From the NCBI GenBank assembly GCA_029571225.1, contig JAKPTF010000035.1:12575-76574 (forward strand): DNA of 64,000 nt. The letters are read 5' to 3'. This document shows positions 10,121 through 64,000 of the stretch, piece after piece. The DNA comes from Candidatus Omnitrophota bacterium (GTDB lineage Bacteria; Omnitrophota; Gorgyraeia; Gygaellales; Profunditerraquicolaceae). Both the position numbers and the translations under genes were made by a program. How positions within the stretch are numbered: position 1 is the stretch's first letter; every line of letters starts with the position of its first letter. A model generated the notes under the pieces. That model had not been told where the DNA came from and made no database searches. It saw only the letters and a program-made list of their open reading frames with translations.

Positions 10121-10153
10121 CCTGCGCGGCAGGCATCATGCCTGCCGCGCAGG
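10121..10153. promoter_or_regulatory. GC-rich 13-bp perfect inverted repeat (stem-loop) in the 89-nt gap between the fusion-enzyme gene and the PGI gene
   Basis: CCTGCGCGGCAGG (10121-10133), loop CATCATG, CCTGCCGCGCAGG (10141-10153). No U-run follows on the coding strand, so it is more likely an mRNA processing or stability element, or a protein-binding site, than an intrinsic terminator. Confidence 0.45.
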
Positions 10154-10162
10154 TAATTGATA

Positions 10163-15313: not shown

Positions 15314-15329
15314 CGTTTCTTCTCCTTTT

Positions 15330-16859
15330 TTAATCTTCCGCAAGATATGTATCCTCGAGTTCTCCCTGTTCCCCCCGGAGAACGGAATAATAGATTGACG
15401 GGTCAGACCGCTGCGATATCGAAGGGGTAACCACGGCGTAGGAATAACCGTGCTCCTTGAACAACCTGCTCAAACCGGATGTGTGAAAACCGCCGGTAAT
15501 GACAGCGACATAGCTGCTGTCCGATGCGGTATTGATCTTCCGGGCGATATTGCGCATGAACGCCTGTTCGCGGTCGATCCCGACTTTATAAAAACTGTCG
15601 AGCGCATCGAAATTTTCATCGATGACCGTAGACGCGACGGGCCGTGACGGAAGGCCGTACCTTCTGCATGAATCGGATAGAAACACGATCCATCCGGCGG
15701 TCACATAGCGGGAGCGGTCGGCCTGCATGGCGTCGTATTCTGCGGGCGTCAGGTCGAGCCGCAGGAACTGATCGAGGGTATCGAGCGCCTCCGAAATGTC
15801 GCTCAGGCGGCGTTCGTCATTATTAACAAAAAGCTCCTGCCGCACACGCGCCTCCAGTTCGGAGATCTCCCTGATCAATTTCTCCGCATCGATATTCCTG
15901 CCCATAGCGACATACCGCATGTATGCGTCGAACTGCGGATAGGCTGCCGCCAGATCAAGGTGGTCCTGCGCGGCATTGCGCAAAAAGTCATAAAATTCCT
16001 GAGCGGATATCTTTTTGTCCTTGAAATCCGCCGTCTTATCTATCAACTCCTTAATCGAGGCGCCCTGCAATTTCTGGGCAAGGTCCTTGATGAATGCGCT
16101 CCGCTGGGACTCCGCCTGTTTGAAATCGATCGTCTTTTCAAGTTCGAGGCTTTCCCTGAACAAATTGACCTGCTGGCATTCGGACAGAGAGATACTCTTC
16201 TTTTGCGCCGATTCGGCAAGATATGTAACGTATTTGACCAGCGGTAACGCTTTATGCTTGAATGCTCGTTTCTGCGCATCGAGCTCAATCAGCTCGGGAT
16301 TGAACATATGCGGCTTGAGCGCCTCGACAATAGCGGCCAGCCCGTTGATATCGTTCAATCCCTGCTCCTTGTATGCCTCTATATTAAGGAAGGAATCCAG
16401 GTTGCTGTCGTATAATGCGGGGTCTTCAATGCCGAAAAGCTCAAGGTTATGGTCGGAAACGATGTCGAGGTATTCTTCCCCGGATATCTTGCCGTCGCGG
16501 AGGTATTTTTCAGCGACTTCCTCGCGCGCCTTTTTATCCGCAAAGTCCCTTAAGAACGAAAGGCTCACGTCGCCGCTGCCCCCTTCGACCATGATGAGCC
16601 TCAATTTCTTTTCGCGGGCAAGATAATCAAGGATCTGCGCAAGGTTCTTTTGTGCTTCGTAGTTACAATGGGCGTCCTGGATCTGTATTATTGCAGGGCC
16701 GGGCCGTCCTGCCTGTGGCGCTTCGAAGACTTCCTTGATTGTGCCGAACTGGGAAGGTATCTGAAGATTTTTTAAAGGGGTGCTTGGAAAAACGGGATTG
16801 ACATAAATTAAGGAAAGCAATAAGAAGAATGGAATAGTTTTTTTAAGTTTTTTATTCAT
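15330..16859 (-). CDS. Secreted TraB/GumN (Tiki-like) family protein, putative
   Basis: ORF 15330-16991, but the convincing start is the internal ATG at 16857-16859 (MNKKLKKTIPFFLLLSLIYVNPVFPS, a classic signal peptide). The C-terminal motif AVITGGFHTSGLSRLFKEHGY resembles the TraB/GumN GxGHxxGxxGLxxLLxxxGY motif; N-terminal IQIQDAHCNYEAQ is a possible first His motif. The stop at 15330-15332 lies 17 nt from the next gene's ATG, which indicates translational coupling. Confidence 0.45.
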   Translation of the reverse strand: MNKKLKKTIPFFLLLSLIYVNPVFPSTPLKNLQIPSQFGTIKEVFEAPQAGRPGPAIIQIQDAHCNYEAQKNLAQILDYLAREKKLRLIMVEGGSGDVSLSFLRDFADKKAREEVAEKYLRDGKISGEEYLDIVSDHNLELFGIEDPALYDSNLDSFLNIEAYKEQGLNDINGLAAIVEALKPHMFNPELIELDAQKRAFKHKALPLVKYVTYLAESAQKKSISLSECQQVNLFRESLELEKTIDFKQAESQRSAFIKDLAQKLQGASIKELIDKTADFKDKKISAQEFYDFLRNAAQDHLDLAAAYPQFDAYMRYVAMGRNIDAEKLIREISELEARVRQELFVNNDERRLSDISEALDTLDQFLRLDLTPAEYDAMQADRSRYVTAGWIVFLSDSCRRYGLPSRPVASTVIDENFDALDSFYKVGIDREQAFMRNIARKINTASDSSYVAVITGGFHTSGLSRLFKEHGYSYAVVTPSISQRSDPSIYYSVLRGEQGELEDTYLAED

Positions 16860-16861
16860 GG

Positions 16862-16918
16862 GCAAATAAAAAAGCCACGACTCACTGAATCCTCTTTTCC
16901 GGAGGCATTCAGTCATCC
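16862..16918 (-). terminator. Terminator/attenuator-like hairpin followed by a U-run, immediately 5' of the TraB-like gene's ATG
   Basis: Minus-strand RNA: GGAUGACUGAAU-(16-nt loop GCCUCCGGAAAAGAGG)-AUUCAGUGAGUCGUGG, then CUUUUUUAUUU, then GCCC AUG. A 7-bp perfect stem plus imperfect extension. Could terminate giant-gene transcripts or act as a leader attenuator. Confidence 0.35.
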
Positions 16919-16946
16919 GTGGCCATTCCATACTGTATGTGCTTCT

Positions 16947-16964
16947 TTTGAAAGCGCTTTCAAA
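16947..16964. promoter_or_regulatory. Perfect 18-bp palindrome TTTGAAAGCGCTTTCAAA, candidate operator
   Basis: Seen directly. Positioned just downstream of the candidate -10 element and about 90 nt upstream of the MNKKLKK start. Confidence 0.4.
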
Positions 16965-16981
16965 ACGCCTTACTATTAAAA

Positions 16982-17010
16982 AAGATACCATAGAACACCA
17001 TTTCTGTCAA
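16982..17010 (-). promoter_or_regulatory. Candidate sigma70-like promoter for the downstream (lower-coordinate) genes
   Basis: On the minus strand: TTGACA (17010-17005), a 17-nt spacer, then TATCTT (16987-16982). Lies in the AT-rich 217-nt gap between the giant gene's stop and the TraB-like gene's start. By eye only. Confidence 0.3.
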
Positions 17011-17076: not shown

Positions 17077-20000
17077 TTAAATATTTGTCGAGAAACAGCC
17101 GTCTATCCATACAACAAACTCGATCGCTGTTTTTTCAAGGACATTGTTGTTAAACGCTCCCGCAAGAAAGGCTTTGATGCCGCCGTCTTTGTTCTCAGGC
17201 GCATTGTCGTTCTTATTGTCTTTCCCACCCTTATCATATTTCACATAAAATCCTGAAGCAGTTCTCTGAGTCTTCTGCGCATCCGTGCACGCAGCCCGCA
17301 TAGTATCAATAGCCGCGTCTATATTGCCTGCTCCCTGAACCAACGACCGCACGTGATCGGTCTCATACCCGCACCGGCACCAAAGATGCGCAAGCTGTGA
17401 TTTTTGTTCGCAGGTCGCTTTAAGGCCCAGAAGATAACAAATATCCTCTTCGCTGAACACGTAGCTGCCGGTATACTCTGATCGCCGACAGCACAGCTCG
17501 ATCAAAAAACTTGTTGTTTCGGCATCGAGGACAATAAGGCTTGCTTTGCTCATGTTCCTGATCTGAGTCTTATTGAACAACGGTTTATTGCCTCTATAGA
17601 TAAGCGAAAGCAGGAATGCGTTTCGCTCCCGCCGAAGCCAGTACGCGATGCTCTTCAGAGGCCCGGCATTCATTCCTTTGCGAGATTCCATGAATTCGCC
17701 AAGCCTCACATACGGGCTTATATTATCGGGCACCAGGCCTGCTTCCACCAGCGCCGTAACAAGCTTGCCCATGCGCGTATTGCAAAGTTCAGCCAGCCGT
17801 CTGCTGTCCATCCGCAGGTCCTTAAGGAAAAGGAACTCGGGGTCCCCATACTCTCCTGCCGGATTGTTTATCCGGCAACACAAATTGAACCCCTGCTTTC
17901 TCCAGAAACCGGTCAAGCCTGCCAGATTATTCTGCGAAACGAGCACGGACGCAAAATCGCTCCCCATGGCCCTGCATACCGGTTCCATGAATTGTTTATA
18001 CAAAAATGTGCCAATGCCTTTCCCACGCAGGGCCGGGTCGAGCATAAGCTCGATCTGTGCGCGCCGCTGGGTATCTATTTTGGTAAAGTGCATCATTGCC
18101 AGCGGCATCTCCGTTGGTTGCGCGGTTCGGTCTCGCAGGAATACGGAATACGCAAAACCATCCCGTGATGTCACGACTGCCCGGAGCGAAGCGATCCCGG
18201 TCAGCTTTCGCAGCTGTCGTATCGGCAGTTCCGATTCGATGAAGGTCTTGACGGGAATTGCGCCTCCGTCCGAACGGCGCACCGCGTATCCAGCCCCGGA
18301 CCGCCGGATATTGACAGCAGGGTCACGCCGCGGATTGAACACGTAATAATATTCGCTCCTGTCCTCGCAGGGCAGGGACAATTCCCGGCTACGATAATCG
18401 TCGCTGTCAAGCGCCTCCTTTGCGTCTGCGGTAAAGCAGGCCCCTCCTGCAGTGAATACGTACGTACGGCTATCCATTCTGACTTTCTTCGACTCGCTCA
18501 AGGCGCTTTTTCTTACCAGATACTTGAGATAAATCCGCCTCTCCAGAAGCTGTTCGTACAGACACTGTTCCCCGTGCAGAGTCGCATCGGGATAACTTCT
18601 GCAAAAAGCCAATGCCTCCGCATAGATACGGCAGCTGGTGCTCAGGGTAAAACCTGCCTCAGGCGAATAATCGAACAGTATCTGTAATGCGCTGCACGGC
18701 CACCTGAAGAGGTATCGGTCAAGCGGGATCTCGTCGCAGGCCCTGCGCCCTGACGGACAGAACGCAAGGGCAATGTCTTTCCTGCCATGCGCATGTGTAG
18801 CTCCGAATTTGCGCTGCAACAATGTATTGATTTCAGGGAATCCGCGCTCTGACCGGGCAAAGCAGCACGCCCCGTCTGCGCATCTGATCCTGCCTGCCGT
18901 TTCCCGGGAAAAACGAAGTTCTATACCGTGATTTCCGCCGTCTCTGCCTCTTTTCCCCCCACCAGGATCGTCCGGAAGAACCTCAGATTCGGCCTTTGAA
19001 CGGGTATAATGCACCACGACGGCTGCACAGAATGCCGCTGTCAATATCGCGCTCAAAATGAAAACCGTATTGGACGGCAGCGCAATCAATCCCATGTCCT
19101 CAATGCCCGAAAGGAACAAATAAACCAGGAGGCCGGCGGTAATCAGTTTGCTTACCCATCTCAGGCATGTTGAGATCATCGGATTGTGCTGCAGCGTAAG
19201 CTGGCAAAGGGATTTTGATACGCATACGTCCAGCACAATGACCAGTAAGACCACATTGATTATGAAAGCCGCAAAGGTAATCCCCGTGCCGAACCGGCTG
19301 AGCAGCAGCGGCGTTATTCCGAGCAATCCGGGGCCCGCGATCAAAGGAAAAGAAACCGGGATTACGCAGAACCATTTATAGGGAACGGCCTCGAAATATC
19401 TGCACACATGGAGGCGGGGCATGAAGAAATCAAGACAGAATATTCCCAGGACGATGACGCAGGCGATCTTCAATATCCCCAATTGGAACAGGGACAGGGA
19501 AAGCCCGAGCGCCATGAAGGCAATCACAAAAACGATTGATATCGGCATCGACAGCAACAACAACCTCCTGATGCTGCCGCGCGTCAAATTAAGATGCTGG
19601 GCAATCGCACGGAAAACGATCGCGGTTCCGATGATATTGATCGCCATGCCGACTACAAATACCGCCATGGCCAACTGGTAAAGCAGGCCCATCATGCCTC
19701 CGTCCTGCTGCGCCTCAAGTCGCCGGAGCATATCGATCGACCGAGCCTGCGCATAAAGGCCTTTGCCTCTGAGTACCTCCCGGTAAAAAACCAGTATTTC
19801 AATCCACGTCCGGCCGGAAAAGTAAAGTTTCTGGTTGCCGAACCTGACCGGATGGCCGTTATCTATCAGGAAAAGCCCTGTTGATTCTTCAACGACCTTA
19901 ATGACTTCTTCCGGCGAGACCGATAGAGAGACCTCCTTGATGAGCCGGCGGTAGAATAACATCCGTTCCTGCTGGGATACGAGCCGCTTCGACCATGGAG

Positions 20001-23000
20001 CGCGCCTCTTGCGCGTCTCGATACGCGCGAGTATGTTATCGTACTGGCGGATCAGTATTCCGAACAGGACCTGATGAAGAAACGCATGGACGCTTTGATC
20101 CGTACAGGCGAGCTCGCTGTAGAGAGCGCCCGGGGAGGACAGTTTTCTTTCGAAACGCAAGCTTGCGCGCTCGAACCTGCGTTGAGCACGCTCGATCGCA
20201 CGGCTGCTGTTCGCCGGATATACGGACACGATATCAAAACCGACGTGGTTATTCTCGAATACGACGAGCGCGCCGATATCCGGGTTGATGGCCACAAAAC
20301 GGCCGTCATTGATGAAGTAATTCGTATCATGGCTCAAGACCACCTCATACGGCATTGCCTCATACATGCGTAGCAGCTCAAGGACCGGTTTATTGCGGTC
20401 GTACAGCGGGCTGCGGCTCGGCCATTCGTATAAATGGCGGGAAAAATGCCAGCACAGATTTTCAACGCCGGACCATGCGATCCTGCGAGCGCCTCCGTCG
20501 AGATGGTTATTGCCGTTCTTGATGAATTCAATATACGTGGGAAGCGCTTCGACCACATCGTTGTCCCCTTTGACGAGGATCGCGTACATGCCGAGGCTGC
20601 GGGCCGGATGGATATCACTGTCAAGATTATCCCCCACCATAATGGCCTGCGAGCTGTCGATATTAAAATCCCGCAACACAATCCTGAACGCTTCCGGGTG
20701 CGGCTTTTCTTTCTGAGACGGGAAATCGTCCTGCGTGATGATACGGGAAAAATATTTCTTGATCTTAAGGTATTCGAGCGTCTTATATGCCATCGCTTCG
20801 CAGTTGTTCGTCAGAAGCACCAGGGGATAATCCTCTGACAGCCTATGAAGCACACCCTGCAGCTCGGGATTCGGCTGAAGGTACCGGGAAAGATCAATAC
20901 TGGCAGTCAAGTATTCATGATAATCGTGGGCGCTCAATCCGAACATGCGGCATATCCTGCTATGGCTCTTTTCGCTGCCGACGCGCTGTTCGATCTCCGC
21001 GGCGGATAAAAACGGCCTTCGGCACCTGATGAACTCGAGCAGCGCCTGGTCATATTTTTGTGCGAGCTCATCGCTGTCGTAGAGCGTGTTATCGAGATCA
21101 AAGATGATAACCGCGACGCTTCCCGAAACCCGCTGCTGGACAGCCGGCAAAAACGTAGAAAAGAAATAGTACACCAGACCCGAGAGCTGCTTGGGCCCCG
21201 GATGCTGCTGCTGGTAGTAGATCTTGCGCAGCCGCGCAAGATATCGTTTTTCAATGGGGATCCCCGCGTTATCGACAACTACGATGAATTCAGCCAGCTC
21301 CAGAGGATGCGCCTTGAAATATTCATAACTGATGCGGCGGCCGCCCCGTTCCCCTTGATGGGCAAGATGCGCCAGCTCGTGACGGAGGATATCTTCCTGG
21401 ACGACCCGGGGCAGGGTCAGAAAATACGGATGGAAGCAGATGGTATTGGTCTCCCGGACGCTGTGGGCGACCTTGGACCAGCGCAAAGACTCTTGCGCCG
21501 AGATAAGGACGTTGAATTCCGGCGGGCCGCGGATGATGCCGCGTGCCGTATGGACCAGATTGGCGAATTCCTGGAAGCTCCAGAAATAATCATACACGAT
21601 GGCTCCCGGCTTGATGGCATATCTGCCTTTGGAGATTGAAAAGGATAGGCTCGTCGGTATCCTTTTTGCGTATTTCTTTTGGCCTTCCTTTCGGGCGTGC
21701 GCCGGTATGACAAGCGGGTAAAAATGACGCCGATGGCCGTTATTATACATTCTAAAAATCTTCCCGATCAGGATCAGAGAATTCACCGCAAGCCAGACTG
21801 AAATACCGATGCTGATGGCCAGGTCGAAGAACGGCATGCCGGTGACGAAGATGGCGATCCCCGCTGCTATTGCGGCGATAGATGCCGCAAGGTCCCCGAG
21901 AACATGGATGTATGCCCCTTCCATGTTGATATCGGTGCCCGAATGGCCGCAGAGGAACCGGTACCCGACCAGATTCACGATCATGCCGAAGAAAGCGATG
22001 ATGAGAACCTCAGCCCCCCCCACCGGTAGCGGCTTGAAAAACCGGACTAATGCGGATATGATGATATACCCCGATGTTATCCCGAGGATCAGCGCGTTAA
22101 TGCCCGCTGCTGCCAGCTGGAGGAAAGAGTTGCCTTCGTATTTCGGTGCAAGCCCGAACCGGTGCGTGGCCCAATGCGCGACCAATGCGCAGCTCAGCCC
22201 TGAAATATCCGTTATCATATGGCCGGCATCGGCGACAAGCGCCAGGGAATGGAACCAGAGGCCGCCGATGACCTCGATAAGCGCATATCCGGCGGTAATC
22301 GCCAGGACGATCATGAGCACACGTGTCCCGGCGTGATGATGTTCGTGGCCGCCATCCCTGAAACCATTACGATGGTTGACGTTGCCGTTGAACGTCTCGA
22401 CCATCTCCGGGTATTCGGCATAGGCAGCATAGCCCTCGCCGATCACCTTTCTTGTCGCCGCGAATATGACCGCGGAAAATACCAGGGTCTGCGTCATGCC
22501 AATAGCAAACATGAAACCGAATACCAGATAAGCGCCGATAGACATCACAAAACTGCGCAGGAAATCGCGGCGCGCCGTGCTGCGGCGGTAGCCCCGCAGG
22601 ATACGCTGGGCATAATTGAGCGGCCCGCCGACCATGCTCACAAGAATGATATCAAGAATTATATTGACCGCCATGTTCCCGCCAAGCATCAATGCAAGCG
22701 GGTCTGAAAGATACATTTTAGCCGCGACAATGGGTATGCATGACAGGCCGCTCGCGAACAAATCATTGGCGAGCTTCTTACGGCGCACATAACCGTACGC
22801 GCTTATAAGCTTTCGCACGCGCGTGGAAATATCAGCGATCCGGGGACATACAAGCTGATCGCCTACATATCCGCACGCTTTCATATCGACAAGGGCATTG
22901 CGCACGATCACAAGGCTGATCCAGACGCAGGAAAGCACAATACTGATCTGCCCGATGCCCTGTCCGAGCGACATGCCGATAACGGTTGCAAGTATCCCCG

Positions 23001-26000
23001 CAATAACCTTGGCATAGGTCAACGACCTGAACCTATTGTCCTCGAACGGCAGCTTGTTCTCCATGATCGCGTCGCTGATGTCCTGGAACCGCCGGCTGCC
23101 CCCGTCTGCGATGCTGTTGTCAAGCACCAGGTCATACTCGTCATCCGGCACAAAAACCAGGCACCGCGATACGGCGCCCCATCCTCTGCACCGGGAATAG
23201 TGGCGGCGGTCCTCTTCCCGGGCAACAATCTTGACCTTGATATCGAACATGCCCCGGTCAAGGCTGCTGAGCGAGTGGATACCCTCGACGACAACCACCC
23301 TGGCCGGACATTTTGTCGCGCATTCAACGATGTCTGCGGTCAAGGAAGCCCAGTTATGGTGCCCGCAGGTATAATCAAACGATTCTATATACGCATCAGC
23401 TGCAAACACCTTCACCCAAAACCTGTTTGCAAACACAAGACCCGTAAAATACGTTTTGCCTACTCCGCTCGACCCGTCGATGAGAACAAACGCCCTGCCT
23501 TTCTTGCGGCACACGCCATCGATCATAGCAGGAAGCAGCGCCTGCCCTTCCTTGAGCGTGGCGCGGAGCGCTCCTCCGTCATTCCGGGGATACCGGGGGG
23601 AAGAGGCGGGATCTTCCGCCACGGTAGATTCATCCGCCTCTTTTGGCCCCCCAATATGATCCCTGGAATCATAACTCACGAAATGTATTGCTTTGCGTAT
23701 TGCTGCGGCGTAGAGCTTCCAGACATTGCCCGAATGGTTCTTATGATACAGGTATGATAACAGCACGATCCACGGCACTGATGCGCATTGCGTGATCATA
23801 TAAGAATACTGCGGGAACACCAGAAATGCGAAGAATACGACCGGAAGCCAGTACGGCAGGTTGGTCATGAATATGAGCCTGGGATATTTCAAATACCGGT
23901 GCACGCCCTGTGCCGTACCGTCATAATACACGTCGCGCAGGCTCTGGCGCAGCGGATGCCTTTCGACCCAGAACCTGCCCAGGAAGTATCCTGCGCCCAG
24001 GCCGAACCAGGTGCCCGGACCTTGATCAAGAAATGCTTTTATGACAGGGATCGGAAGGCCGGATGCCGGGATGCCGAGCGCTCCGGCGGTATATGCCGTC
24101 GCCAGCGGCAGGACTATCCCATACCACCCTATGCCGAACCAGGCAGCGCTGAACGTAAAACCCAGTATCCCTGCCCTGATGACCCTGCCCGTATCGAGAT
24201 GGCAGTGTTCTTCATCTATGCGGATCTCATAACACTGCGCGAAATAATTTGAGATCGCCGCGCTGATGCACCCGACGATCGCACAGCGTACATAATCAGC
24301 CAGAATATAGCTGCTCACATAGGCATCCACGGAAAGGCCTGTCGGAATCGGAAAGATCAGCATGATCGCTGCTGCAAACACGGTGAAAATGACTGACGTA
24401 AGCGCCAGCTGTATGATAAACTGCCTGACCTGGCCGTTTTCAGCGCCGCCGTCTTTGTTCAGATCACCAAACAGATGCCGCGCGACGCCGAACCATTCGC
24501 GCTCATAGGTGAGGCGCGAACGTTCGATGCCCCGGGCAAGCGCCATCGCCTTCTTTTGTTTCACGCCGAGAAATACCAGTTCTTTCCATGCGCCCTCTCG
24601 CACGCTCGCAACGAACAAATCAGCGCCCTTTTCGTCAATAACCCCTTTGCCGATCTTTTCGAACACGCCGGAACCCAATATCTGATGCTGAATAAAATCT
24701 TCGTTCAGGTACGCATACATATACGCGGCCATGGCCGCGCCGGCTTCCCTGCCGATCTTGCGTATCAATTTACGGGCAGCACCATTGCCCCGCACAGCTT
24801 CTTCAGTCAGCGAACGCAGTGTGAATCCCTGTTTCTTGAGTTTCCTGGTCAGGTTTGGCCCGGAAAACAGGTCTTCAAAATCGCCCCGCAGGTCATTCCC
24901 CGACTCGTCCTTCGGGTGATCCCCGCGCGTTTTGGAACCCAGGAAAATGAACCTGCCGCGGTATCCCTCCGGAATATCGGTAAGCGGCACCACGCTGCGC
25001 AAGACCACATTATGGCCGAGTTCCCGTATTTCGCCATGCTCGCCGGCATATACTTTATTGTCACGAGCTGCAGCGGCATTACTGCCCGTTCCGGATATCC
25101 AGACTGTCCCATGTCCCCAGGGGAACAGGGCACCTTTCGGCGTTAGTTCTCCGTCAACAGCCGCATTGCAGTCATTATCGATATACACGGGCATACTGCG
25201 GCCGAATGCCTTTTCCATCCGCTGCCCGAGCGCCTCCCGGAGCGGATAGTGGTCAAACGGCATGTTCTTTGCGGCAAAAGGCGTTCCGACAACCCCCTTT
25301 TCCTGGTCCAGAGGGCCGGCAAAAGCTATCCCCAAACCAGCGATCCTATCAACGGCAATCCGGTTGTCGCGGACCACCCGTTCGATTTCGCTTACCATGG
25401 CATCAACGCACTCCTCAGGGCTCGCCTGCATAAGGCCCTGTCTGAAATAATCGTTCCACAACAATTCGTCCCCGCGGGCAGCGACCTCATACTGTTTGGT
25501 GATCGCGCCGACAGCAAGCTTGCTTCCGCCCACGCTCGCCGCCATCACGAGCGGCCCGGATTCATCGTGCCGGGCTTTTTCGACAATATATCGTACGGGC
25601 TCAAGGGATTCGTTATACTGGATGACGTTACGGGCAATACCAGCGGGATTGCTGAAGCTTATATAGACGTCGAAATCCTGCGCCGTAGGGATACGATTAA
25701 AATCATCGAACGTCCGTTCCAGATAATTCCAGACCCTCCTTTTTGACAGGGACTGTTTGGTTTCCAGAATATAGCTGTCGATCATTTCATCGTCCGTCAG
25801 GAGCAGCCTGAAATCTGTGATCGCAAGCCTGACCGTATAGCCGTCGCCGTTCGAAACAACCCGTGACCTGTTGCCGGGGCGCCCCTCCAGGCGCCTGACG
25901 ACGCGGTCAACTACTGCAGCCACCGCATCGTCGTTTTCCGCGAAATAGACGATGTTCTTGACACGCTCGAGTCGGCGGTCGTCTTCAAGAGAAAATATGC

Positions 26001-29000
26001 GGTCGTCGGCATGGGCGTCAAGGATCATGCTGAAAACCGAAATATGCTTGCCGAAACCGGCAATCTGTTCATACAGGTCCTTGAAATGCGCGTTGAACTT
26101 GAATTCCATGATGCCGTTGACCGTCGTAGCATCGACTTCCTTTGAACCCTTGGCGGAGATGAACACCCTCTCAAAATCATCGATGTCCCCCAGGTTCGCG
26201 AGGAACGCGATGATGTCCTCGAACTCGAAGCTGAACTTATGAATGCCCGAGGTCTCGCCGAGCATGCCTTTCACCCGGCCATAGCATTTTGTATCATGCC
26301 TGCAGCCGACGTCATGGGTCCCCAGACGGCTGAACCTGGCGAGCGTCGAGCGCACAACATTAACGAGCATGCCCTTGTGGGGGAAACGCGAATACATGAC
26401 ATTACGGTTGCCTTCCTGCATCAGGTCGTCGAGTTTGCTGACAAAAACCCCCATGTCCGCCTTGCGCACGAAACGGTTCCAGTCCGGTATGATCTCGATG
26501 CCGCGGAACAGCTCCTGCATCTGGCAGGACAGGCGCGCATCGGCAGCGCCGGCTTTATTGGCGTAAATCAGGCCGAGCAGAAGGCCGGCGATCCTGCCGT
26601 CTTCGATCCTGATCCGCTTATCGGTAAAGGCCGCGCGCATTTTCCTGAACTGATCATCGAGAGCGGACGCAGCGGGACAGAACGAACGTATGTCTTGGCC
26701 ATAGAGCAGCTTGAATATGCGTTCCATGGCGTCCGTGTTTCCCGTGGCAGGAACCGTAAGATCATTAAGCGCCTTATCAGCTGACGCAAGGGCCTCAGAG
26801 GCCGGATACGAGTATCTGACAATATTGGCAAGTATGGCCTGCCGCTCGTGTCCGGGCAGGCGCAGGAAAAAGTTCAGGTCGCCGTTAATTACCTCCTCGT
26901 TGCAGGAATCTTTTATCAAACATCGGTCGCAATGCAGTTTATGGCGGAGGATGAAGGTAAAGGTTGGTATATCGTGCAGGGCTGATGCGGGCAGATCGAT
27001 GACTCCGGTGACGGCGCAGGTCGTGAATATGCCTTTGTCGCTCGGGGAGGAAACAAGCTGGTAATCAGGAGGGCTCCTGATCGAATACACGTATCCCCAT
27101 ACCTTGTATTTCTTGAGCGTGTCAAGGGCGGCATTGAGGATACGCACGATATCGTCCTTGGTAAAACCCTCGCACTGGCAATTCTCAATGATCACCTGTT
27201 TGCCGATGATCCTGCCGTAGATGCCCGGCGCTGTCGCTGACGGCGCAATCGGGGCTTCGCCGCCGTCTTTGCGGCTGTTCATCCTGTCAAGCACCGACAG
27301 GAGCCTCTTTTGCTCCCGGCTTCTGGCGATCTGCAGGTCTTTTTCATGCAACCCTGCCCAGAAGTCATGATGCAGATGCCCCGCATTCTCGATAATGATC
27401 TGATCGATGCGCCCGCCGATTCCGCCGCGGGCCATTACCTCCAGGACGAATTCGAGGCGGAAGGACTTGCGCAGCGGCAGATTGATATTGTCGATCAGGT
27501 ACGGCACGCAGCCGCGCTCGCCGAATGTTTGGATAAATTCTTTGTAGGGCCACCGGCTGTCTTTGGCCATAACCGCCACGCTTGCGAGCACCCGCTGCGC
27601 AAGCAGGCCGGTAAGGATATCGCGGTAACTCCATCCGAACATCTCCGGATTTGCGGCTTTATGGATCGATTCGATGTATTCGATAAACCTGCTGCCGAAA
27701 CCGTCGGTGTCTTTTGCAAGCTCCTCGATGACCCGGGAATTGAATTGCAGGTTGAACACGCCCATCAGGAACTCAAGATAGAGGTCGAATAACGGCATCT
27801 TTTTTTCCGATGTCAGGAATATGATGCAGCCTGCCAGCCGGTCAACGATGATATGGCGGGCGGCATATTTCTGCCGGGCGTCTGATGGCAGGAGGCGGCG
27901 GTCAAGCACCCACACCTGCATTTCTTCCCTTTGAATCTGACCGCTGTTCAAATGCCTCTTCCACCATTTCGGCTTGACCGATTTTCTGTCAGTGAAAACC
28001 GAGGCGAACGCGAGCATCATGCGGAATGGTTCGCGTTTTTTCTCCAGAATACGGTTATAGATACCGGGGTATCTCTCGAACAGCGCAGCGACCTCTTTCG
28101 GTTTGTGCTGTTCGATGAGATCGCGCATGGCCGGCTCGGAGATGGCAAAGACTGTGCGCGGGATGCCTGATTTTTCCATCTGGCCGAGAAAGATGTCGCG
28201 CGCCTTGGAAACGCCGGAGGCAGTCGTCGTATCGAGGTCTGCCTTCAGGAAATTCCTTCTGATCTCGGCGAGCATCTGATTCAGTTCTTCCGGGTTATAG
28301 AGGTCCTTGCGGTACCGGTTCAGATGCATGGCGCGGATATTGCCCATCGCGTATCCCAGGTCGATCTCGAGGTCGCTCGTGATCCTTGTCGCGCTCACCA
28401 CCGAACCCGTACTCCTGAATTTCTTGCGGTTAAATGGTATAAGAAAGTGGATGTTTTCCGCGACCTTGCGGCGCAGGACCAGCTTCGGAAACAGGTAATC
28501 GATAAAACCGCTGACCACCTGGCTGAAAAGTTTCCTGCTGATCTGGTATGCGCCGGTTTGGCCGAGGATATTGCTGCCGCCGAGCAGGGTACAGCCGATC
28601 GTCGCAATGGTAAAACCGACGTCCTTATACGCTTCCGTGTATTGGGCATCGACGCCGAATCCTTCTTTTTTGCGCGTGTACATGGAATACAGGACTCCGG
28701 CGACGATATTGACAGGCAGCTGGATCAGGACGATGGCGAGTATCTCACCGTATCCGAGGATATTAACGGCAGTCCAGAGCGACGCGATGTTGAGGACGGA
28801 AAAGATGATGAGGCCGTAAAGCCCGTACTGGAGGAATTGCGCGAATTTCTGCCAGTCGATATCGGCCCAGTCCCATTTCTTGACCTTTCCGCCGTACCAG
28901 TGTATCTCATCCGTTATCACCGAGCGCAGGAATACGCTGACATGCCACAATATCCAGGAAATAACGGCCCACTCGTATCCGATAGGGATGCCGATGGTGA

Positions 29001-32000
29001 TGAGGAACACCGCAAGGACACCGACAAGCGACAGGGCGATCCAGCCGATATATTCCCAGCGGATCTTCTTCCTTTCATAAATATTCTTGATGACCGGGTC
29101 CGCAGCGACTTCCTTGCCTTCTCCGCCGTCCTGAACGGCCCCGGCTCCCCATCGGGAATAAATCCTGCGGTACGCATTCTGCGTGGCTTGGTCCCTGCTG
29201 AGCCTGAACTGGTCAACGGTGGCATCGAGGATATATCCGGAATCCTTGCCCGGAGGCGTTATAATGACGAAACTATGGCCGTCGAGTGCATGATACCTGT
29301 TCTCTTTAGCATATACCTGATCGACCCGGTACCCGAGCAGGGAGAATGCCTCGGCAAGCAGATACGACGCTAATCCGCAGCAACGCGGATATGCGGGAAG
29401 CGTTTTGATATACAGGTGCAAAATCCTGACCACGGCATCCGCCTGCGCTTCTACCGTGTCCATTTCATTCACCCGCAGCACCCGCATGCCCTTGAGCATC
29501 TTACTGCGCAGGACGCGCGCCTGCAGATACGGCCGCCTGCTTCCGGGGATAATGGAAATAAATCCGATGTGGTTGGCCAGATAATCAGGCGCAGGCTGCG
29601 AGGAAGCAAGATAGAAGTTATAGACAAGCGACCGCTTATCGAGTTTGTCCATTGGGAACAGAACATAATCGCGTCCCTTCTGCCCGGAAATTGAGCGTAA
29701 ACGCGTATATTCGCGCATGCGCCGTACCCTGACTTTTCTTCCTCCGTCCTGCGTGACGCTTCTTGCATTGCGTCTTTTTTCAATGGCCATAATGGCTTCC
29801 CGAACCGCACGGCGCACCTCAAGGTTCCTGTCGTCGCGGAATCTGGCCAATACTTCGATGTCGTTTTCATCCCCTATTTTACCCAATGCCGCAGCGGCAT
29901 TGGAACGGCTGCGGAAATACACGGACGGTTCGAGATATCGCGCCAGCATATGTTTTGCCCGACAATCACCGGTTTTTGCGCTGATTGTTCCGATTGCTTC
30001 AATGAAATCGGGGGTAACGTTTTCATTGTCGCTTTTGCGCTCCAGGGCAAGCATCAAAAACGGTATGGCGCCGGGATTCGCCATTTGCCCCAGATGACCT
30101 GCTCCTGTCCTGTTCCAGCAGTTATGATAATTGAATATCATGTTGATCTGCTGCCAGATGGGGGCCTTGCCCTCTTTTGTCTCGATCCTGCCTCTGACCT
30201 TTCCGGCTGCCTTAAACGCCTCAAAAACAGACGCATCGATATAAAATAAGCGGATAACGCTCTCTGAACGCGCATGCCGGAATGTTTTCTCGCACGCCGC
30301 GAGCCCATCCTGTTCCATATCGTGCTTTATGCGCCTGAATATCTCAACCGGAACTTCATAAACCGTTCCGCGTACCCGGCTACCCGGTTCCCTGACCGCG
30401 ATCGCCGAACTATATACTTTGCCGTTGTATTCGAATGCATATTTATAGATGCCAATACACCCGATATCGAGCTCGGCGTTCGTTTCGCGGAACATCCTCA
30501 ATATATCAAGGTCAAACCCAAGTTTCCACGGCCCATAGACAAACAGGGAAACATTCTCTTCTCCGCCGTCGCGCCTCGTATGATTATTCGTTGTGCGCAC
30601 GCGCTCCAGCAGGGCTGCCAGCTCGCCGCGCCGGTAGCGTTCTAAAAGTATCGCGCGCTCGCGAGCCACAGATGTATTGCTTATTCTCCTGCCAAGTTTC
30701 ACAGACACTTCCCATGCGGTAATTCTTTGCTCTCCGGCAAGAAGGTTATCGATAGCGGCACGGTCATCCAATGTTATGCCATTTCGTTCCATGGTATCAG
30801 ACAGAACTTCAACGACCCCGTCCCGGATCGTCCTGGGATAGCGGCCCATGTTATTGTCAAACTCTTGAATGTCCGGATATATGGCCTTCATGATCTTCCG
30901 GTCCACGCTTTCTATCTGGAATCCCTCTTTATTGACAAACCTGATCGTGATTGCTCCGAGGAATGCAAGAACGCGCAGATCCAGATTCGGGTTTAATGCA
31001 CCCGTAATGCCTTTTGATAAAAGAGCCACAGCCATGGCCCATTTCGTCAACGGACCTGACCCGTAATCATGCGTATAGATGAGGTACAGCCTGCGGCGCT
31101 GCAGGGGGATCGGGTTCAGAAGTATTCGTTCGACGCGCTGAACCGTATTGCGGCTCACGTTCTGGCTTTTTTCCAATGACTTAATCCGGGCAATGCGCGT
31201 ATCTTTGGAGAACAGCGTTTTCATGGTACGCATGAACATTATCACATGCCTAACAGACGTGACCTCCGAAAGGCCGGCCTTTCCTTTGAGATGCTCGAGC
31301 AAAGAATCCAGTTTGACTGCATCGGGATCTTTTCCTCCGTCACGGAAAGGCTCACAAAACATCCTGGTCCGCTGAATGGCGCGTTCCTGTTCTTCCGCGA
31401 TCCGGTAAAACTCTTTATCGGTAAAATAAACGCTGCCACCGTATTCCACTTCCAGAGCATCCACAATAAGCTGGAACAAAAACATCTCAAACTGAACCTT
31501 GTCCAGCGGAAAGCTGATGCCGGAATCGATATAATGGGACAAAGGCGATTCGACCCTCTCGCCGTAATAATACTGCGGCAAAGCTGCCAGGATGTCCTGC
31601 TCCCTGCTCAAGATCCCCCGCTGATGCATGATCCTGATAATGAACAATTGCAAAACCATTGCGAGATCGTGGAACTCGGCGTCCGGGCTATTATCGGGCA
31701 TCGTGATTGTGATCTGCGAAAGTCTGCCCTGTGGATCATAGCCGACATCTAAGGTGCCGTAATCGTCCGTCCTGTTTTCACCAAGGGGATATATTACGGT
31801 CTCGATATTCACCTCCAGGTTTGTTGCCAGGCAGCGGATGAACGCCCTGAAACCGGGGAGCATCATCTTTTTTGCCTGCCGCGAGCACGCGGACGCGTGC
31901 ATCATGCGCATTGCGCTTTGTACCCTGAAGAAATATTCCTTCAGCCTTCGCGCCAGGGAAATATGGCTGTAATAGAACCGTGTTTGCGCATACACCGCTG

Positions 32001-35000
32001 CATCATCCTTGCCGGTAAGCACTGCAGCACAAGGGTCCACGGTATAAGACCTGAAGAAACCGATCGCGATCTTCTTCACATCCTTCCTGTCCATCCCCTC
32101 ATCGATCTCTTGCTTATAGATACGGTACAGGCCGCGCACCTCAGCCGCGCAGGCGCGCTCCGCAGGTGCGCCGAGACCGCCGTCTTTGGCAGCCGGGGAT
32201 CGCAATAATTGCCGGACGCGTTCGTGCAGCGCTTCTATGGAGCCGTTGTTGTCGATGATACGTGTCCTCGGATCACCACGGAGAGCGTCAAGCGCCGGTT
32301 TCTGACGCGCTTCGATATCGCCTATCTGCTCCCTGCTCAAACCGCGCGCAGCGAGACGGCTGTGCCTCACAGATTGGTCGGCGTCAATAAGCCAGATCTC
32401 ATCGCACAGGTCATCCAGCTCCTTCATCTCATTGAGCACTGCGGCTTCGATGACAATCATGGCCTTTCCCGACCGTTTTGCTTGAGCTATCCCGGCAAGC
32501 GCCCGCTCTTTCATGGGCTCGAACATGATCGCGTTCAGGGCGCGGCGCTGCGATTCATCGCCGAATACGATCGCGCCGAGTTTCTTCCGGTCAACCGCTC
32601 CGTCAGGCGCCAGGACGCCTGCGCCGAATCTTTGTACGATCTTTTGAATCATACCCGGATCAGCCCTGACTTCATGGCCTATGGCGTCCATGTGAATGAT
32701 CCTGACGCTCTCCATGACCTCTCTCTCGATCAGTGTGCATACCGTTGTCTTGGCGCTTCCGATATACCCGGCTACGCCGATTATTCTGGGCGTGCGGAAT
32801 GCCCTGTCTGCGGCACCCGGAAGCAGCGATTTGGCCATGACAACAGTTCCGTCATATTCAAGCGGCCCGCGGAATCCGAGAGACCTCAGGAAGCCGACAA
32901 CGTCCCTGCACGGTTTCCCGGTCTTCTTATTGGGCCTGACATGCACGATCAATTCCGTTATGGCCGGATCCCTGCTGAACTCGTTTTCAAGCAATGCGCA
33001 GAATATGCGTCCGCGCCTCAGTTTAAGGTCCTGCGGATACGTGCGCCAGAAGCTGACCACTGCCGCGTTCCCCCGCGTCCGGACCCTGGCAAGCCCGACC
33101 CAAGAAGACCGCTCACCGCCTGTTGCCAGATAGACAGTGTCCGGTTTCCGCTCGCTGAACTCAAGCCGATATTCCGGAATTCCTGTCTTGCCGCCGTCCT
33201 GCTGCGCAGCCGCCTGCAGTGGCGGCACCGGCGCATTGAGATCAACGGCATGATTGAGAATATGCCATTGGCTGTCATTGACGTTATGCGCCCTGGCATA
33301 CTCCTGTAATGCATCTGCCCGCTCGGCAACGGCATATTCTTTCCACTGCTGCGTCCCCTGCATCACGTAGAGATCAGCGACAAGGCCCGAAAGCCGGTCA
33401 TGCACCGGTTTGTGGGTCAGGTCAGGCCGCAGGACCGTGCGCAGGTATGCATGGGTCCAGATGCCTGCAGGGCCTTTGTTTATAAGATCGGCTTCGGCGC
33501 ACAATTCAGCGAGCTTCTGCTCTTTCTCATCAATACTGCCGGCCTTTTTTTCGCTCAACCATTTCCAGTACCTGCTTTCCACAGCTCCAAGCAAGTACAA
33601 CCAATCAACTGCCTGCAGGTTGCATTTGAACTCTTCGAAGCTACGGACATTGCGCGCAGCTTCAGGAACCCCGTCCCTGAAAGCATCACCGGCGTATATA
33701 CCGAGGCTGGCCAGGCGCAGGTTCATCTCTGCCATAAGCCCCAGCGCCTTGCGCAGATCTTCGAGCGAAAGATTGCCCACCATGCCTATGAACTCGTCTC
33801 TGACGATGGTTTCGAAGAACGGCCGCAGCCGTATGAATGAGTGGACTATCGGGCCTGCAAGAAAGCCTGCATTGGGAGCGCGTTTCTCCCTTCTTTCAAC
33901 CAGATAATCCTGCGGGAAAGCCGTGCGCATATCATAAAGCAACGCTATTTTCTCCCTGGCATCCGTATCCGAAACTCCTGCAGAGCGCATTTTCTCGCGC
34001 AGAAACGCATCGGAACGGAGATCTAACCGGAATTCCGCCCTGTGATATTTATTCCACACCGGCACGTCAAGAAGCTTTGCCGCAAGTTCTGCCCTATCGT
34101 CGCGCAGCAGACGGGTAAATGCATATACACGGTGCTTCTTCGCAAGGCGCGATACTGCGCGCGCTGCGCGCTTCAGGTAAAAATCAGGCATTTCTTTGCG
34201 TTCCGGATCCATAAGCATCTTGACGGCGTGGTAATCAAACGGGAACATAACCGCATTGCGGAGAAAGGGCGCCAGCAGGCCTGCAGATCCGAACAACGAG
34301 ACGAGTGCCACGAATAAAGCGTACGGTAATCCGGCAATTGAGGCTCCGGCAAAAGCATATAGGCCTGTAACGACTGTGAACAATGCGCAGGCGCCACAAT
34401 AAAACGAAGAGAACCATTCAGACGATCTTTCTTTTTTATTCAAATAGACAATACGGCGAAACAATGGCGCTGGTGAAAAATCGAACGGTTCCATGGGTTG
34501 ATTCTCGTATTGCGGCACATGGTGCGGCCAGGTGGCAAACGTGGCATGCATCTTGTCAGGGAAATCCTTATACTCTTTGCCGCCTGTATATGTCAGCCAG
34601 GGAATCAATATAACAAAGATGAACACGCCTGCCGCAAACGCAAGGACCGGGATAAGCAGCCCGCCGTCCCTGACCTGCTGGCCGCCTGCTGTCTCCGGAT
34701 CGACTGCATGGTTGAGCAGGATCCAATCATTCTCGGTCAGCTCGTTCTCACGTGCCAGATCCCTGAGATACTGTGTTCGCTCATCTGCAGAGCGGTTCTG
34801 CCAATCGGACGTTGTTTCCTCTATATAAAGCTTGGATACGGCTTTTTTGATGTTCTCTGGCGCAGGGGCAAGCACAGTCCGGAAATAGACGAATGTCCAG
34901 CATCCGGCAGGCGCATCTTTATGCAAACCATGTTTATCGAACATCCGGAGCAAAAGCTCATCCTGTTCGATAATGCTGTAAAGAGCGAGCTCCCATTTGA

Positions 35001-38000
35001 TATGCTGGAAATCCTCGATGATATGGTTCTGGATGATCGAAACTGCAAGAGCATCAAGATACTGTTGGAACGCAGGCAGGCTGGTAACGCTTCGGCATGC
35101 TGCCGGGATCCATGTGGACACGGTCTTATCATCGACCATGTTCATCGAGGTCAGACGGGCCTGGAATTCCTGGGCATACTGCAGCGCCTGACGGAAGTCG
35201 TCGAGGGTGAGATTTCTCGCAAGATCGTACAGGGAAGCGGACCTGCCGTCCTGGAACCAGATCTTCTGGAGGTCAGGCAGGCCTTTCCAGTATATCGTTT
35301 CCTGGAATGCCTGCGCGTAGGCGCGGCCATGGGCCCTTTCGCGGGCGTTTTCCAGGATGCCTTGCTGGACCTCAAGCCGCAATGCAACGCGCCTGGAGGC
35401 ATATTCCCTGAGATCATCCGGTATTGCCGGATGGGCCAGTATTTGCCTCGCCTTATCAGCTTCGAACCGTTCGATCCAGTTATTAAGTATCGACACGAGC
35501 GATCCCCGCTCGATTCGTGCGAAAATCGGCGCTGCATTATCAACATCTCTATCGGTCAGATAATCTACGGAAACACGATCGAAGCGCCGGACAATCGCCT
35601 GATCATTGGCAAGGCGAAGGATATGCAAACAACATGTGCCTGCACGGCGGCCGAATACATCCAGCATCATCAAACACCATACTGCCAAAGCCTTTGAACG
35701 GGGTAATTTACTGATCAAATAGACGGCAAATGAATACCCGACGCATCCCAGAACAATCGACATATATATATTTCGCGTATTCCACCATACGAACATGGGA
35801 TATATGGCCGGAATGACCCATGCGATAATAAATGTAAGGATGATCGGCACGGCATTGCTCTGCATCCTCGGATTCGCTGCTGCGGGATACGCCGGCTGAT
35901 CCGGCCACAGGCGCAGGTTCTTGATGAAACCGAACGGCCGGAGCAGGGACTGTCCGCCAATACCTCCATCGAAATTCTCGAGAATATATCCGTGCTTTTC
36001 CATATGATCCGTGCTGACAAACGCGAACGTCGGGCTAACGCCGGCCTCGCGGTTGGGTACTTTTATTATGCGGTAAAGGCCTAAGAGCCAAATGGAGTGC
36101 ATACCGAGGTACAGAGTCTCATCAGTTGCATTAAAAAAGACATGTTGTATCAGGCGGGAATGAAATATATCGGATTCACCACAGGCATAGTCCCGCAAGC
36201 CGAACTGGAGGCCTAAACGGGATGACGTGCTGATGCGCGTCGTATTTGAACGGCCGTCTTCGATGATCAGCGTATCCCACGTTTCGTGAAAATCGCCGGT
36301 GCGATCGCCATGGCACAAAAGCGATGACAGGTATATGGAAAAAGACAATTCTTTCCGGTCATATACCAGTGTAAACCGCCTGTTATCCGGCTGCCATATG
36401 ACGGTATCCCGTGTTTTTTCCCTTCGCAGGGCGTCTACTTTATCCAGATGTTTCGCAAGAAGATCAAACCTGGCCTGCGCCAGGCGCATGTGATGATACC
36501 GTTCATCATCGATCTCATCGAGCTTATCGAACGGGATGAAGCTGCTTCCGATCGGCAGGCTTGCGAGCAATTCCTGTTCATTCCTGAATGACTCGATTTT
36601 TTTACCGGCTATCGCGGAGACCGCCAAAGAACTGGTTTGTGCGCGCACAACTATCAACGCTTCAGACGGTTTCCCGAAGGCTGAATTTGAAAGTTTGCGG
36701 AATATGATATCACCGGCTTGTATCTTTTCCAATCCGGATATTTGGGGGGCAAAAGACTGTAACTCTGACATGTGGTTGGAAAGCTTGTGTTCTTCAGACA
36801 AAGTGTCCTTGTTAAATTCGCTCAGATACAGACGCATCCAGTCGCGGAGGCTGCGGCAAGGACTTGTCTTTTCCTGGCGCAGAAGATCAAACGCCGGCGG
36901 ACCGCGTAAGTCTTCGACAACATTGCGGTCAAACCACGATAAATCAACCGATGCCGCCTGGCTGATCGACTGCGCAACACCATGAAGGTCATCGTCGCTA
37001 ACGGATCTCATGGATCCGAAGCGGATCGTATTGTTTATCTCCGGGCAAATCCCTGGTACGCGGCTTGCCAGGGCATGCGCGGAGGACTGAAAAAGCAGCG
37101 CTTCATCCCTGGTAAGACTTCGGTACGCTTCAACCCGTGCAAGGAACGCGGATACTTCGGCATTGATACCGGGCTGTTCGCCTTTGCTGCGAATATAGAG
37201 CAAGTGCGCAGGCCTCATAAGCGCCATGAACATGAATATTTTCCTCTGCGGGATAGTCAATTCTTCCATGGCCTGCTTCAGCGCATTATTCATAACCAGA
37301 CAATACGTTGTACTGCCCTGTGCCTCATCCATGATGTTCACATCCCAGGGGCTCTCAGTGCGATCCGCCCAGAAAAACCCCGTTGAGCCTTTTGTAAGAG
37401 CGCAATAATAACACGGGTATACGATCTTCATCATGGCCAGGCCATGCTCATAAACCCTGGTATCCATGGGAAGCGCGACAAAATCCGCAGAGTGCTTTTC
37501 GATGAACGAAGACTCAAGCGCAAGCTCCCCGGCAATAAAACTGATGTTTCCTTTCCTGTCCGCGCCTCCGTCTTTGGGCTTCTGCGCATAAAGATTGACC
37601 TCATACAATTCAGACCGTTCCCAGTACGGGAACGCTGCTTTGGCAAGCAGCGCCCGTTCGTATTCGTTCAATTTCATATCAGAAGCAATCCCGTCAATTA
37701 TTGCCTGTTTATCCTTGGCCGGCAGCGCGTTCCAGTCATGCCTGCCCTGCTCCACAAAAAGCCTGCTGGCTGCGGCAGACGCCTGATTTTTGATTAATCG
37801 AATTTTACCGCCGTGGGGAAGGGTTTCAGAAACAAAAGATTCATCTTCCAGTACCGTGTTTATATATAGTCTCGTCCAGCCGCCCGAAGCCACCTGCTCC
37901 TGAAACGCCAGCTCCCTGCAGATATCGATCAGCTTTTGGTCTCTGCTGAACCACCGATTGTACCTGGTATAAGCTCTGTAACGGGATGTGATCTCAGTAA

Positions 38001-63996: not shown

Positions 63997-64000
63997 AGAA

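Follow-up and report, generated by a model that had tools for sequence, protein, structure and literature searches.

A giant Omnitrophota protein built of DGG-tagged enzyme and transporter cassettes: a candidate bacterial polyprotein

The giant open reading frame

The window analysed here is a 64,000-nt stretch of contig JAKPTF010000035.1 from a Candidatus Omnitrophota bacterium (assembly GCA_029571225.1, positions 12,575 to 76,574 of the forward strand). It holds a giant open reading frame (ORF) on the minus strand at 17077..64000, of which 15,639 codons fall within the window (17077..63996). The stop codon is at 17077-17079, the 5′ end lies outside the window, and the frame is stop-free up to the window edge. 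The encoded protein is a series of enzyme, transporter, and transmembrane (TM) modules punctuated by the tripeptide Asp-Gly-Gly (DGG). We describe the modules of its C-terminal third and the part that DGG may play between them.

The stop-free run covers 46.9 kb at 54% G+C and cannot have arisen by chance. Two NCBI protein fragments labelled "MAG TPA: Candidatus Omnitrophota bacterium" (P0158 and P0159) match the start of the ORF in the window with 100% identity. P0159 adds at least 636 amino acids (aa) upstream of the window edge, including two further DGG, which brings the giant protein to a minimum of 16,275 aa. Window positions 1-25313, which comprise the last 8.2 kb of the ORF and the genes downstream of it, recur at 99.99–100% identity in contigs assembled from three other samples, and exact-protein look-ups yielded no contigs beyond that span. 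A scan of GTDB genomes by protein pattern and one of JGI metagenomes by exact DNA, both aimed at the source genome or the N-terminus of the ORF, gave no match. The organism occurs in the samples ENA ERZ773284 and ERZ27257440 and SRA SRR5007359. The ORF is a genuine gene that exceeds 16,000 codons, and the interval to which the original prediction referred is its C-terminal third. That separate genes were joined by an assembly or sequencing error, or that the gene is a decaying pseudogene, is barely credible given the want of a single in-frame stop, the matching contigs and identical protein fragments, the intact homologous ORF in a related locus (L014), and the conservation of the junction motif and module cores. 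Such an artefact would find support in a second related locus (L013), which is full of frameshifts.

Pfam families that tile the ORF are DUF1152, TIM, TPR, M50 (two copies), AAA_5 (six copies), VWA, CoaE, HEAT, ROK, Cation_efflux, HAD, and GNAT. In a hydropathy scan, 66 overlapping window peaks merged into ~40 hydrophobic regions, and TM-like stretches sit between the modules. The TM counts come from this crude scan, which miscounts even the six helices of the cation diffusion facilitator (CDF) module. All named homologues of the ROK region are from Omnitrophota, and the nearest are proteins of 1,500–2,800 aa with other sugar-metabolism domains. A profile of this ROK subfamily searched against GTDB species genomes found nine loci, seven labelled Omnitrophota/Omnitrophica and two labelled uncultured Planctomycetales/Planctomycetia.

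Cassettes of the C-terminal third

Division at DGG gives 38 pieces of the protein within the window, referred to here as cassettes, whose median length is ~350 aa. Those of the C-terminal third, all on the minus strand, are given from the N- to the C-terminal side. Cassette 22 (338 aa, 32176..33189) follows the DGG at 33190-33198 and consists of a 130-aa N-terminal extension and a CoaE domain (32236-32784), with its final DGG at 32176-32184. Cassettes 23-26 (281, 257, 274, and 206 aa; 29122..32175) are soluble and have their terminal DGG at 31333, 30562, 29740, and 29122. HEAT repeats occur in this group at 29791-30063, and no other family was found in it. Cassette 27 (621 aa, 27259..29121) contains TM segments and has no known family, and over its full length it is 35% identical to a cassette of locus L006 that is bounded by DGG at 4893 and 5611. 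Cassette 28 (938 aa, 24445..27258) has an unknown N-terminal module followed by a ROK-like module (core 24481-25545), and its final DGG is at 24445-24453.

By hydropathy, cassette 29 (291 aa, 23572..24444) is a TM "staple" cassette, and the blocks homologous to it in P0013, L013, and L014 begin at DGG. Cassette 30 (158 aa, 23098..23571) is a small P-loop NTPase by its motifs. Cassette 31 (250 aa, 22348..23097) is conserved, with ~4 TM helices and no known family. Its homologues (40–69% identity) recur within many other large Omnitrophota proteins, and it also exists as a 256-aa protein (P0014) whose ends coincide with those of the DGG-delimited cassette. Cassette 32 (619 aa, 20491..22347, final DGG at 20491-20499) is composed of a His-rich N-terminus, a 6-TM CDF domain, and a HAD-IA block. 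Cassettes 33-35 (265, 254, and 224 aa; 18262..20490), of which cassette 34 is TM-rich, precede cassette 36 (361 aa, 17179..18261), which carries a GNAT core at 17884-18105. A C-terminal tail of 33 aa (17080..17178) follows the last DGG.

Enzyme and transporter modules

The original prediction had placed a CoaE-like dephospho-CoA kinase, a ROK-type sugar kinase, a CDF transporter, and a HAD phosphatase in this part of the protein. All four scored above curated hidden Markov model (HMM) cut-offs, and their predicted positions agreed nearly base for base.

CoaE matched its Pfam family with an E value of 4e-24 and the NCBIfam equivalog model TIGR00152 with 106.6 bits (cut-off 65.6), covering model positions 1-187 of 188. 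In alignments with Protein Data Bank (PDB) structures, the Lys/Thr of the P-loop and the Asp of hmDaigHEV are kept. The P-loop reads GSAKT instead of GSGKT, with Ala in place of the Gly before Lys, and the same variant occurs in P0160, a relative with 58% identity. The module is 33–41% identical to ordinary 200-aa CoaE proteins of several phyla. For both CoaE and CDF, divergence from stand-alone proteins (33–41% identity) is no greater than that among the stand-alone proteins across phyla, and by this comparison the divergence of the CoaE module appears normal.

The Cation_efflux (CDF) domain at 21769-22317 has a Pfam E value of 3e-19 and scores 108 bits against TIGR01297 (cut-off 82). Its membrane domain has six TM helices, with HMITD in TM2 and HVLGD in TM5 aligned to the metal-site residues of human ZnT1/ZnT7. 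The cytoplasmic C-terminal (ZT_dimer) domain is missing: the Pfam and TIGR matches end after TM6, and the N-terminal extension of the HAD block comes next. As read from the sequence, the loops obey the positive-inside rule and a strongly basic tail lies between TM6 and the HAD block, a pattern that would place the HAD block and both flanking DGG in the cytoplasm. HAD_2 (20572-21108) has a Pfam E value of 3e-22 and exceeds the cut-offs of HAD-SF-IA v1 and v3. Motifs I–IV are all kept (FDLDNT, LLTNN, EKPHP, and VGDNLDSD) and are also conserved in L013.

The ROK match at 24709-25533 (Pfam E values 5e-11 and 1e-11; 43–45 bits) is above the Pfam gathering threshold (GA) of 22.9, and the ROK-glucokinase subfamily model gives 37.7 bits, far below its cut-off of 260. 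The catalytic Asp motif (ND..GE) and the ExGH sugar-binding motif, here ELGHN, are retained, and IDNDCNAAVDGE and RELGHN align to the Streptomyces glucokinase 3vgk. The phosphate-1 motif is SVGGSK in this protein and SxGG[TSH]K in the subfamily, in place of DxGGT. The zinc motif CxCGxxGCxE is gone, with no cysteines, and GDHPKD..G..GDFED is present instead. Both deviations are invariant across seven Omnitrophota homologues. The module belongs to an Omnitrophota-specific subfamily in which many residues are invariant; it is clearly under selection and is not a canonical ROK kinase.

Two further assignments held in part. A predicted GNAT acetyltransferase has motif A (RGKGIG), aligns to PDB entry 2gan, and exceeds the GA for Acetyltransf_1, only marginally (21.3 versus 20.7 bits); Acetyltransf_7 is below GA. 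A predicted P-loop kinase at 23098-23571 has a perfect Walker A motif (GSSGVGKT) and a uridine-kinase-like hhhhEG motif (RVVVVEGIH), and no kinase family matched it significantly. The only matches were a weak AAA_16, a PRK06547 match confined to Walker A, and a TTM1 uridine-kinase-like match (E value 0.27), and a single-sequence AlphaFold2 (AF2) model was unusable at a predicted local distance difference test (pLDDT) score of 34. A PI3/4K-like loop that had been proposed near 59 kb was not supported, its match at ~59.2–59.4 kb being sub-threshold (E value 0.0027; 18.1 bits versus a GA of 27.1).

The same prediction had raised the alternative that the modules are domesticated pseudo-enzymes, non-catalytic and used for ligand binding or structure. 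An audit of catalytic residues went against this for the interval concerned, as the catalytic or ligand motifs of CoaE, HAD, CDF, and GNAT are intact. A different picture emerged further upstream. The cassette with the TIM-like module (61144-61740), which follows a cassette carrying DUF1152 (62314-62916, E value 1e-14), begins right after a DGG, and its alignment to Bacillus TIM starts only at residue 58. Its catalytic Glu is replaced by Leu (YEPiWAiGtGK to YLPlWvkqqq) and its phosphate loop YGGSV by YGryV, and it is nonetheless 55–87% conserved in P0013 and L013. By its sequence this cassette is a catalytically dead pseudo-enzyme, and the same may hold for the ROK-like module with its altered phosphate-1 motif and missing zinc cysteines. 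Extending that explanation to the protein as a whole is unlikely to be correct. The CoaE P-loop variant and the truncated CDF would fit it; against it stand the four intact HAD motifs, the two intact CDF HxxxD motifs, a CoaE module that is above its equivalog cut-off with Lys/Thr and Asp in place and a P-loop variant shared with a relative, and the intact GNAT motif A. Enzymes encoded next to the giant gene also weigh against it: a phosphofructokinase (PFK) has GGDD and PKTMDND, which we take to mark the pyrophosphate (PPi)-dependent type, and a GAPDH keeps the catalytic Cys of SCTSN.

The DGG junction tag

No tripeptide of the protein is more enriched than DGG, which occurs 37 times where 4.2 are expected (z = 16). 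Asp precedes 37 (44%) of the 84 GG dipeptides, and in 24 of these 37 the Asp itself follows K, R, or Q. No DGG falls within a Pfam envelope, although chance would place 9.8 in these envelopes, which make up 26% of the chain. Nineteen of 56 homology-block ends lie within 10 aa of a DGG (2.7 expected), a number reached in none of 5,000 randomisations, and these block ends coincide with DGG in the partner proteins as well. An RNA-level signal at DGG, such as an internal Shine-Dalgarno sequence, was considered and rejected: the preference for GAC is the same for all Asp before Gly (Fisher p = 0.78), and the Gly codons of DGG vary. The variable Gly codons and the general GAC bias indicate that DGG acts at the protein level.

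The position of the tag is seen most directly in seven paralogous cassettes of ~450 aa (54259-55788, 51616-52950, 43285-44625, 38926-40287, 37564-38925, 34660-35961, and 33190-34659). Each consists of a TM hairpin and an all-alpha domain and ends in ...LNKA.DP....[KRQ]DGG. The seven align in register, with an invariant DGG at the end of all of them. An AF2 model built on the seven-sequence alignment has a pLDDT of 86, and in it the last ~15 residues, including DGG, are of low confidence and follow a confident all-alpha domain. The cassette has no Pfam family and is absent from all homologues fetched, and a Foldseek search of the model against the PDB returned no match (best E value 0.58, TM-score <0.25).

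Related loci place complete domains at the tag. In L006, DGG is followed within 2–3 residues by full-length domains, CoaE (204 aa) and iPGM (532 aa), each aligned from model position 2. In L014, a 210-aa PHP domain sits between two DGG and starts at model position 1. By its distribution, DGG is a selected junction signal at cassette ends. The original prediction that DGG junctions and TM stretches separate all the modules was borne out by the excess of DGG and by the TM-like stretches between modules, with two exceptions: CDF and HAD share a cassette, as do the unknown N-terminal module and ROK.

Cassette gain and loss among relatives

Two closer relatives, L014 (intact ORF) and L013 (frameshifted; JGI 3300018772, Ga0192806_1000047, 1-15567), have 42–87% identity to the window and differ from it by whole cassettes. 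The ROK cassette is present in the window and L014 and absent from L013. The reverse holds for the 4-TM cassette 31, which is in the window and L013 and absent from L014. The P-loop cassette is also absent from L014, and L013 has a P-loop-like block elsewhere in the locus. Three units of the window, the CDF domain, cassette 33, and the GNAT cassette 36, are absent from both relatives, and L014 retains cassettes 34 and 35. Window residues 1433-10361, which take in a ring of AAA_5 domains, are absent from L013 and are not covered in L014, a locus that starts only at window residue 12418. The PHP cassette of L014 is absent from the window and was not detected in L013.

The cassette break points in these comparisons fall at or near DGG. 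Relative to both loci, the window carries CDF as a clean ~205-aa insert that separates DGG from RRHFYPLVIP. By this comparison ROK, CDF, and GNAT are variable cassettes, and HAD and CoaE are more widely shared. In L013, runs of 50–87% identity continue unbroken across its ~10 frameshifts, and that homologue is either a recently decayed pseudogene or carries indel errors of its assembly.

Comparison with described giant proteins

Giant proteins of Omnitrophota have been described before. Archaeovorins combine numerous TM helices with HEAT, TPR, HAD_2, and AAA_5 domains and, occasionally, with TIM, PGI, FBA, and PPDK domains (West-Roberts et al. 2023, bioRxiv 10.1101/2023.11.21.568195). A class named "multi-enzyme metabolic cluster", in which GNAT, HAD, and ROK are among the recurrent Pfams, is defined in a survey from 2026 (bioRxiv 10.64898/2026.06.07.730766). 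C39 (double-glycine) and S8 peptidase domains are reported as common in Omnitrophota giant proteins in the same two preprints. Whether such proteins stay intact or are cut is left open in the published work, which states that their cleavage points are not known.

The protein in the window resembles these giants in its Omnitrophota origin, a length above 10,000 aa, many TM segments, and varied enzyme Pfams (HAD_2, GNAT, ROK, AAA_5, HEAT, TPR, and TIM), as well as in having glycolytic and PPDK domains in or beside the giant gene. It differs from strict Archaeovorins in that no glycosyl transferase or hydrolase, methyltransferase, SAM-dependent methylase, or NUDIX domain was found in the 15,639 residues; the N-terminus outside the window may hold some of these. 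The protein belongs to the already described class of Omnitrophota giant multi-enzyme proteins and is not a new kind of system. The premise that a concatenation of unrelated enzymes is unprecedented does not survive the two preprints, in which Omnitrophota giants with HAD, GNAT, ROK, TIM, and AAA_5 already appear. Text searches of both preprints found no CoaE or CDF modules, DGG tag, cassette indels, or lineage-specific junction peptides, and a literature search found no paper linking Omnitrophota with polyproteins.

Junction peptides of other lineages and putative cleavage

Several homologous Omnitrophota giant proteins have no DGG at all and carry their own recurrent peptides around the same homologous cassettes. 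RSE[VM]R is the junction peptide in P0016 and P0017. TAFGAESR flanks both ROK modules of L004, and GEKAFP is found in P0004, where its first copy comes directly after the ROK module. In P0039, SGDTI recurs five times and is a candidate junction peptide. Distinct tags in distinct lineages would be predicted of a protease recognition site and not of a plain linker.

The best explanation of these patterns is a membrane-stapled chain of cassettes that is probably cut at DGG in the manner of a polyprotein, a cleavage that we infer from the genes and to which, with the rest of the explanation, we give an even chance of being right. The soluble cassettes hold whole enzyme folds (CoaE, ROK-like, P-loop NTPase, HAD-IA, and GNAT) and alternate with TM cassettes, CDF among them. 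Through the TM cassettes the chain would be stapled to the cytoplasmic membrane, and the enzymes that use nucleotides and CoA would probably face the cytoplasm, a location that fits their need for ATP, CoA, or acetyl-CoA. Each cassette ends in a flexible tail carrying [K/R/Q]-D-G-G, at which whole cassettes are gained and lost. A dedicated protease is presumed to recognise DGG and would cut after or around it. The products would be separate enzymes, transporters, and a midasin-like AAA+ motor, acting together at one membrane site beside an adjacent operon of equally tagged glycolytic fusion proteins. Release of the units by a dedicated protease that recognises DGG as its cutting site is the most likely reading of the tag, held with a confidence that stops just short of even.

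The main rival to cleavage is an uncleaved, tethered metabolon, a membrane-anchored set of "beads on a string" in which DGG is a flexible linker or hinge, or a docking site such as an acidic ligand for a VWA/MIDAS domain. A candidate machine for docking is encoded by the same ORF. Six AAA_5 domains, together with midasin lid domains, form a midasin/dynein-like ring at 44626-51615 (E values down to 5e-105) that is a single DGG-free cassette of 2,330 aa, and a VWA/MIDAS domain at 40456-40869 follows the ring by ~1,250 residues, a layout that resembles midasin or MoxR-VWA. The ring and the VWA domain, the modules with no DGG between them, and the failure to find a matching protease in the window all favour the uncleaved chain. 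Set against it, a linker needs neither an invariant tripeptide nor its exchange for another, equally specific peptide in other lineages, and L013 retains DGG in the absence of the AAA and VWA region. The DGG that follows the signal-like N-termini of the neighbouring proteins also resembles a pro-peptide site. We consider an uncleaved scaffold doubtful, if a serious competitor.

Several observations count against cleavage at DGG or limit how generally it could apply. No GG-specific peptidase was identified in the 15,639 residues of the window, where the sole peptidase domains seen are two copies of Peptidase_M50 (site-2 protease) in cassettes at 56152-57183 and 53146-54258 (E values 2e-19 and 1e-7). 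SecA_DEAD and C39/S8 domains were likewise not found in the window, beyond which lies the N-terminal location reported for C39/S8. One DGG abuts the TIM-like module, which lacks its first 57 residues, so DGG is not always at a natural protein start. The cassettes shared by CDF and HAD and by ROK and its unknown N-terminal module show that some modules stay joined. The neighbouring proteins appear to be exported by Sec, and their DGG would then be on the side of the membrane opposite the DGG that flank CDF and HAD.

The original suggestion of a polyprotein that delivers a toolkit of enzymes to one location is compatible with these results and is strengthened by DGG at conserved junctions and by the replacement peptides, although the cognate protease was not found in the window. 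More broadly, and more tentatively, Omnitrophota giant genes may be true bacterial polyproteins, operon-sized and cut at lineage-specific peptides (DGG, RSE[VM]R, TAFGAESR, and GEKAFP) into dozens of enzymes, transporters, and motors, with a protease that co-evolves with the peptide and with genes recruited as in-frame cassettes. Giant Omnitrophota ORFs are the longest genes known, and DGG may be the cutting site that earlier studies called missing. The tag makes cleavage of giant proteins directly testable and offers rational split points for structure prediction and annotation. The DGG cassettes suggest how housekeeping-type enzymes are recruited and lost in-frame.

Comparison with polyproteins, double-glycine leaders, and fused enzymes

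Polyproteins of several viruses are cut at Gly-Gly-X: pp220 and pp62 of African swine fever virus by the protease pS273R, the substrates of the adenovirus protease, and the LXGG sites of coronavirus PLpro. The giant gene is similar in having one ORF, many units the size of mature proteins, and a short conserved GG-containing peptide between them. It differs in being bacterial, operon-scale, and membrane-embedded and in having Asp before GG, and its cleavage is putative.

Classical double-glycine leaders, which are processed by C39 peptidases in bacteriocin and ABC exporter systems, are 15–30 aa long, have no hydrophobic signal, and carry hydrophobic residues at -4, -7, and -12. They are comparable to the present system in that GG closes a dispensable N-terminal stretch in four neighbouring proteins and that C39 is frequent in Omnitrophota giants. 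Unlike in these leaders, position -4 here is K, R, or Q, the sites are internal, and no C39 occurs in the window.

A CoaE domain inside a larger polypeptide is also found in the eukaryotic bifunctional CoA synthase (PPAT-DPCK; PDB 2f6r, matched with an E value of 3e-12), and an Omnitrophota relative, P0002, also has a CoaD-like domain. CoA synthase and the AROM pentafunctional protein join consecutive steps of one pathway, whereas the cassettes described here are functionally unrelated and vary between close relatives.

Downstream genes

The genes downstream of the giant ORF, also on the minus strand, code for an FBA-PFK-GAPDH fusion of 1,716 aa (10163-15313), a PGI-like protein of 951 aa (7218-10073), and a PPDK protein of 2,573 aa (7179 to beyond position 1). 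A TIM-M54-PGK-enolase protein is encoded beyond the window start (in L001). These four co-directional fusion proteins cover most of glycolysis. They share a common plan in which a signal-peptide-like N-terminus ending in A-x-A-G is followed by [DN]NLRP and, 25–40 residues later, by K/R-DGG, which lies at about residues 46-74 in the FBA-PFK-GAPDH, PGI-like, and PPDK proteins. A C-terminal domain of ~240 aa ending in EDTLNKI is common to three of the four (the C-terminus of the fourth is outside the fetched locus), and two have an additional DGG ahead of this domain. With DGG in both the giant gene and its neighbours, the tag is used across the whole sugar-phosphate metabolism locus. Export of glycolytic enzymes would be odd.

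The signal-peptide-like N-termini of these multi-enzyme proteins could be taken to favour the role proposed in the literature for Omnitrophota giant proteins, that of an Archaeovorin-type effector of prey attack which works outside the cell as a surface coat, binding and digesting the walls of prey cells. We regard this as quite improbable for the giant protein, whose 15,639 residues in the window yielded no glycoside hydrolase, glycosyl transferase, adhesin, dockerin, or lytic transglycosylase. Its modules need ATP, CoA, or acetyl-CoA, and the predicted orientation of CDF places the flanking cassettes in the cytoplasm.

Between the giant ORF and the fusion proteins is a conserved gene for a 553-aa protein at 15330..16991 on the minus strand (start probably at 16859), which has a signal-like N-terminus, belongs to no known family, and lacks DGG. 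A TIKI/TraB-like protease, suggested by the spacing of H..E..GGFH, was considered for it and rejected, as HMM and PDB searches gave no support (best match DUF5682, E value 0.023). The 553-aa protein is 68.6% identical to the product of an L014 gene one ORF downstream of the giant-gene homologue, and it is the best-conserved protein of the locus.

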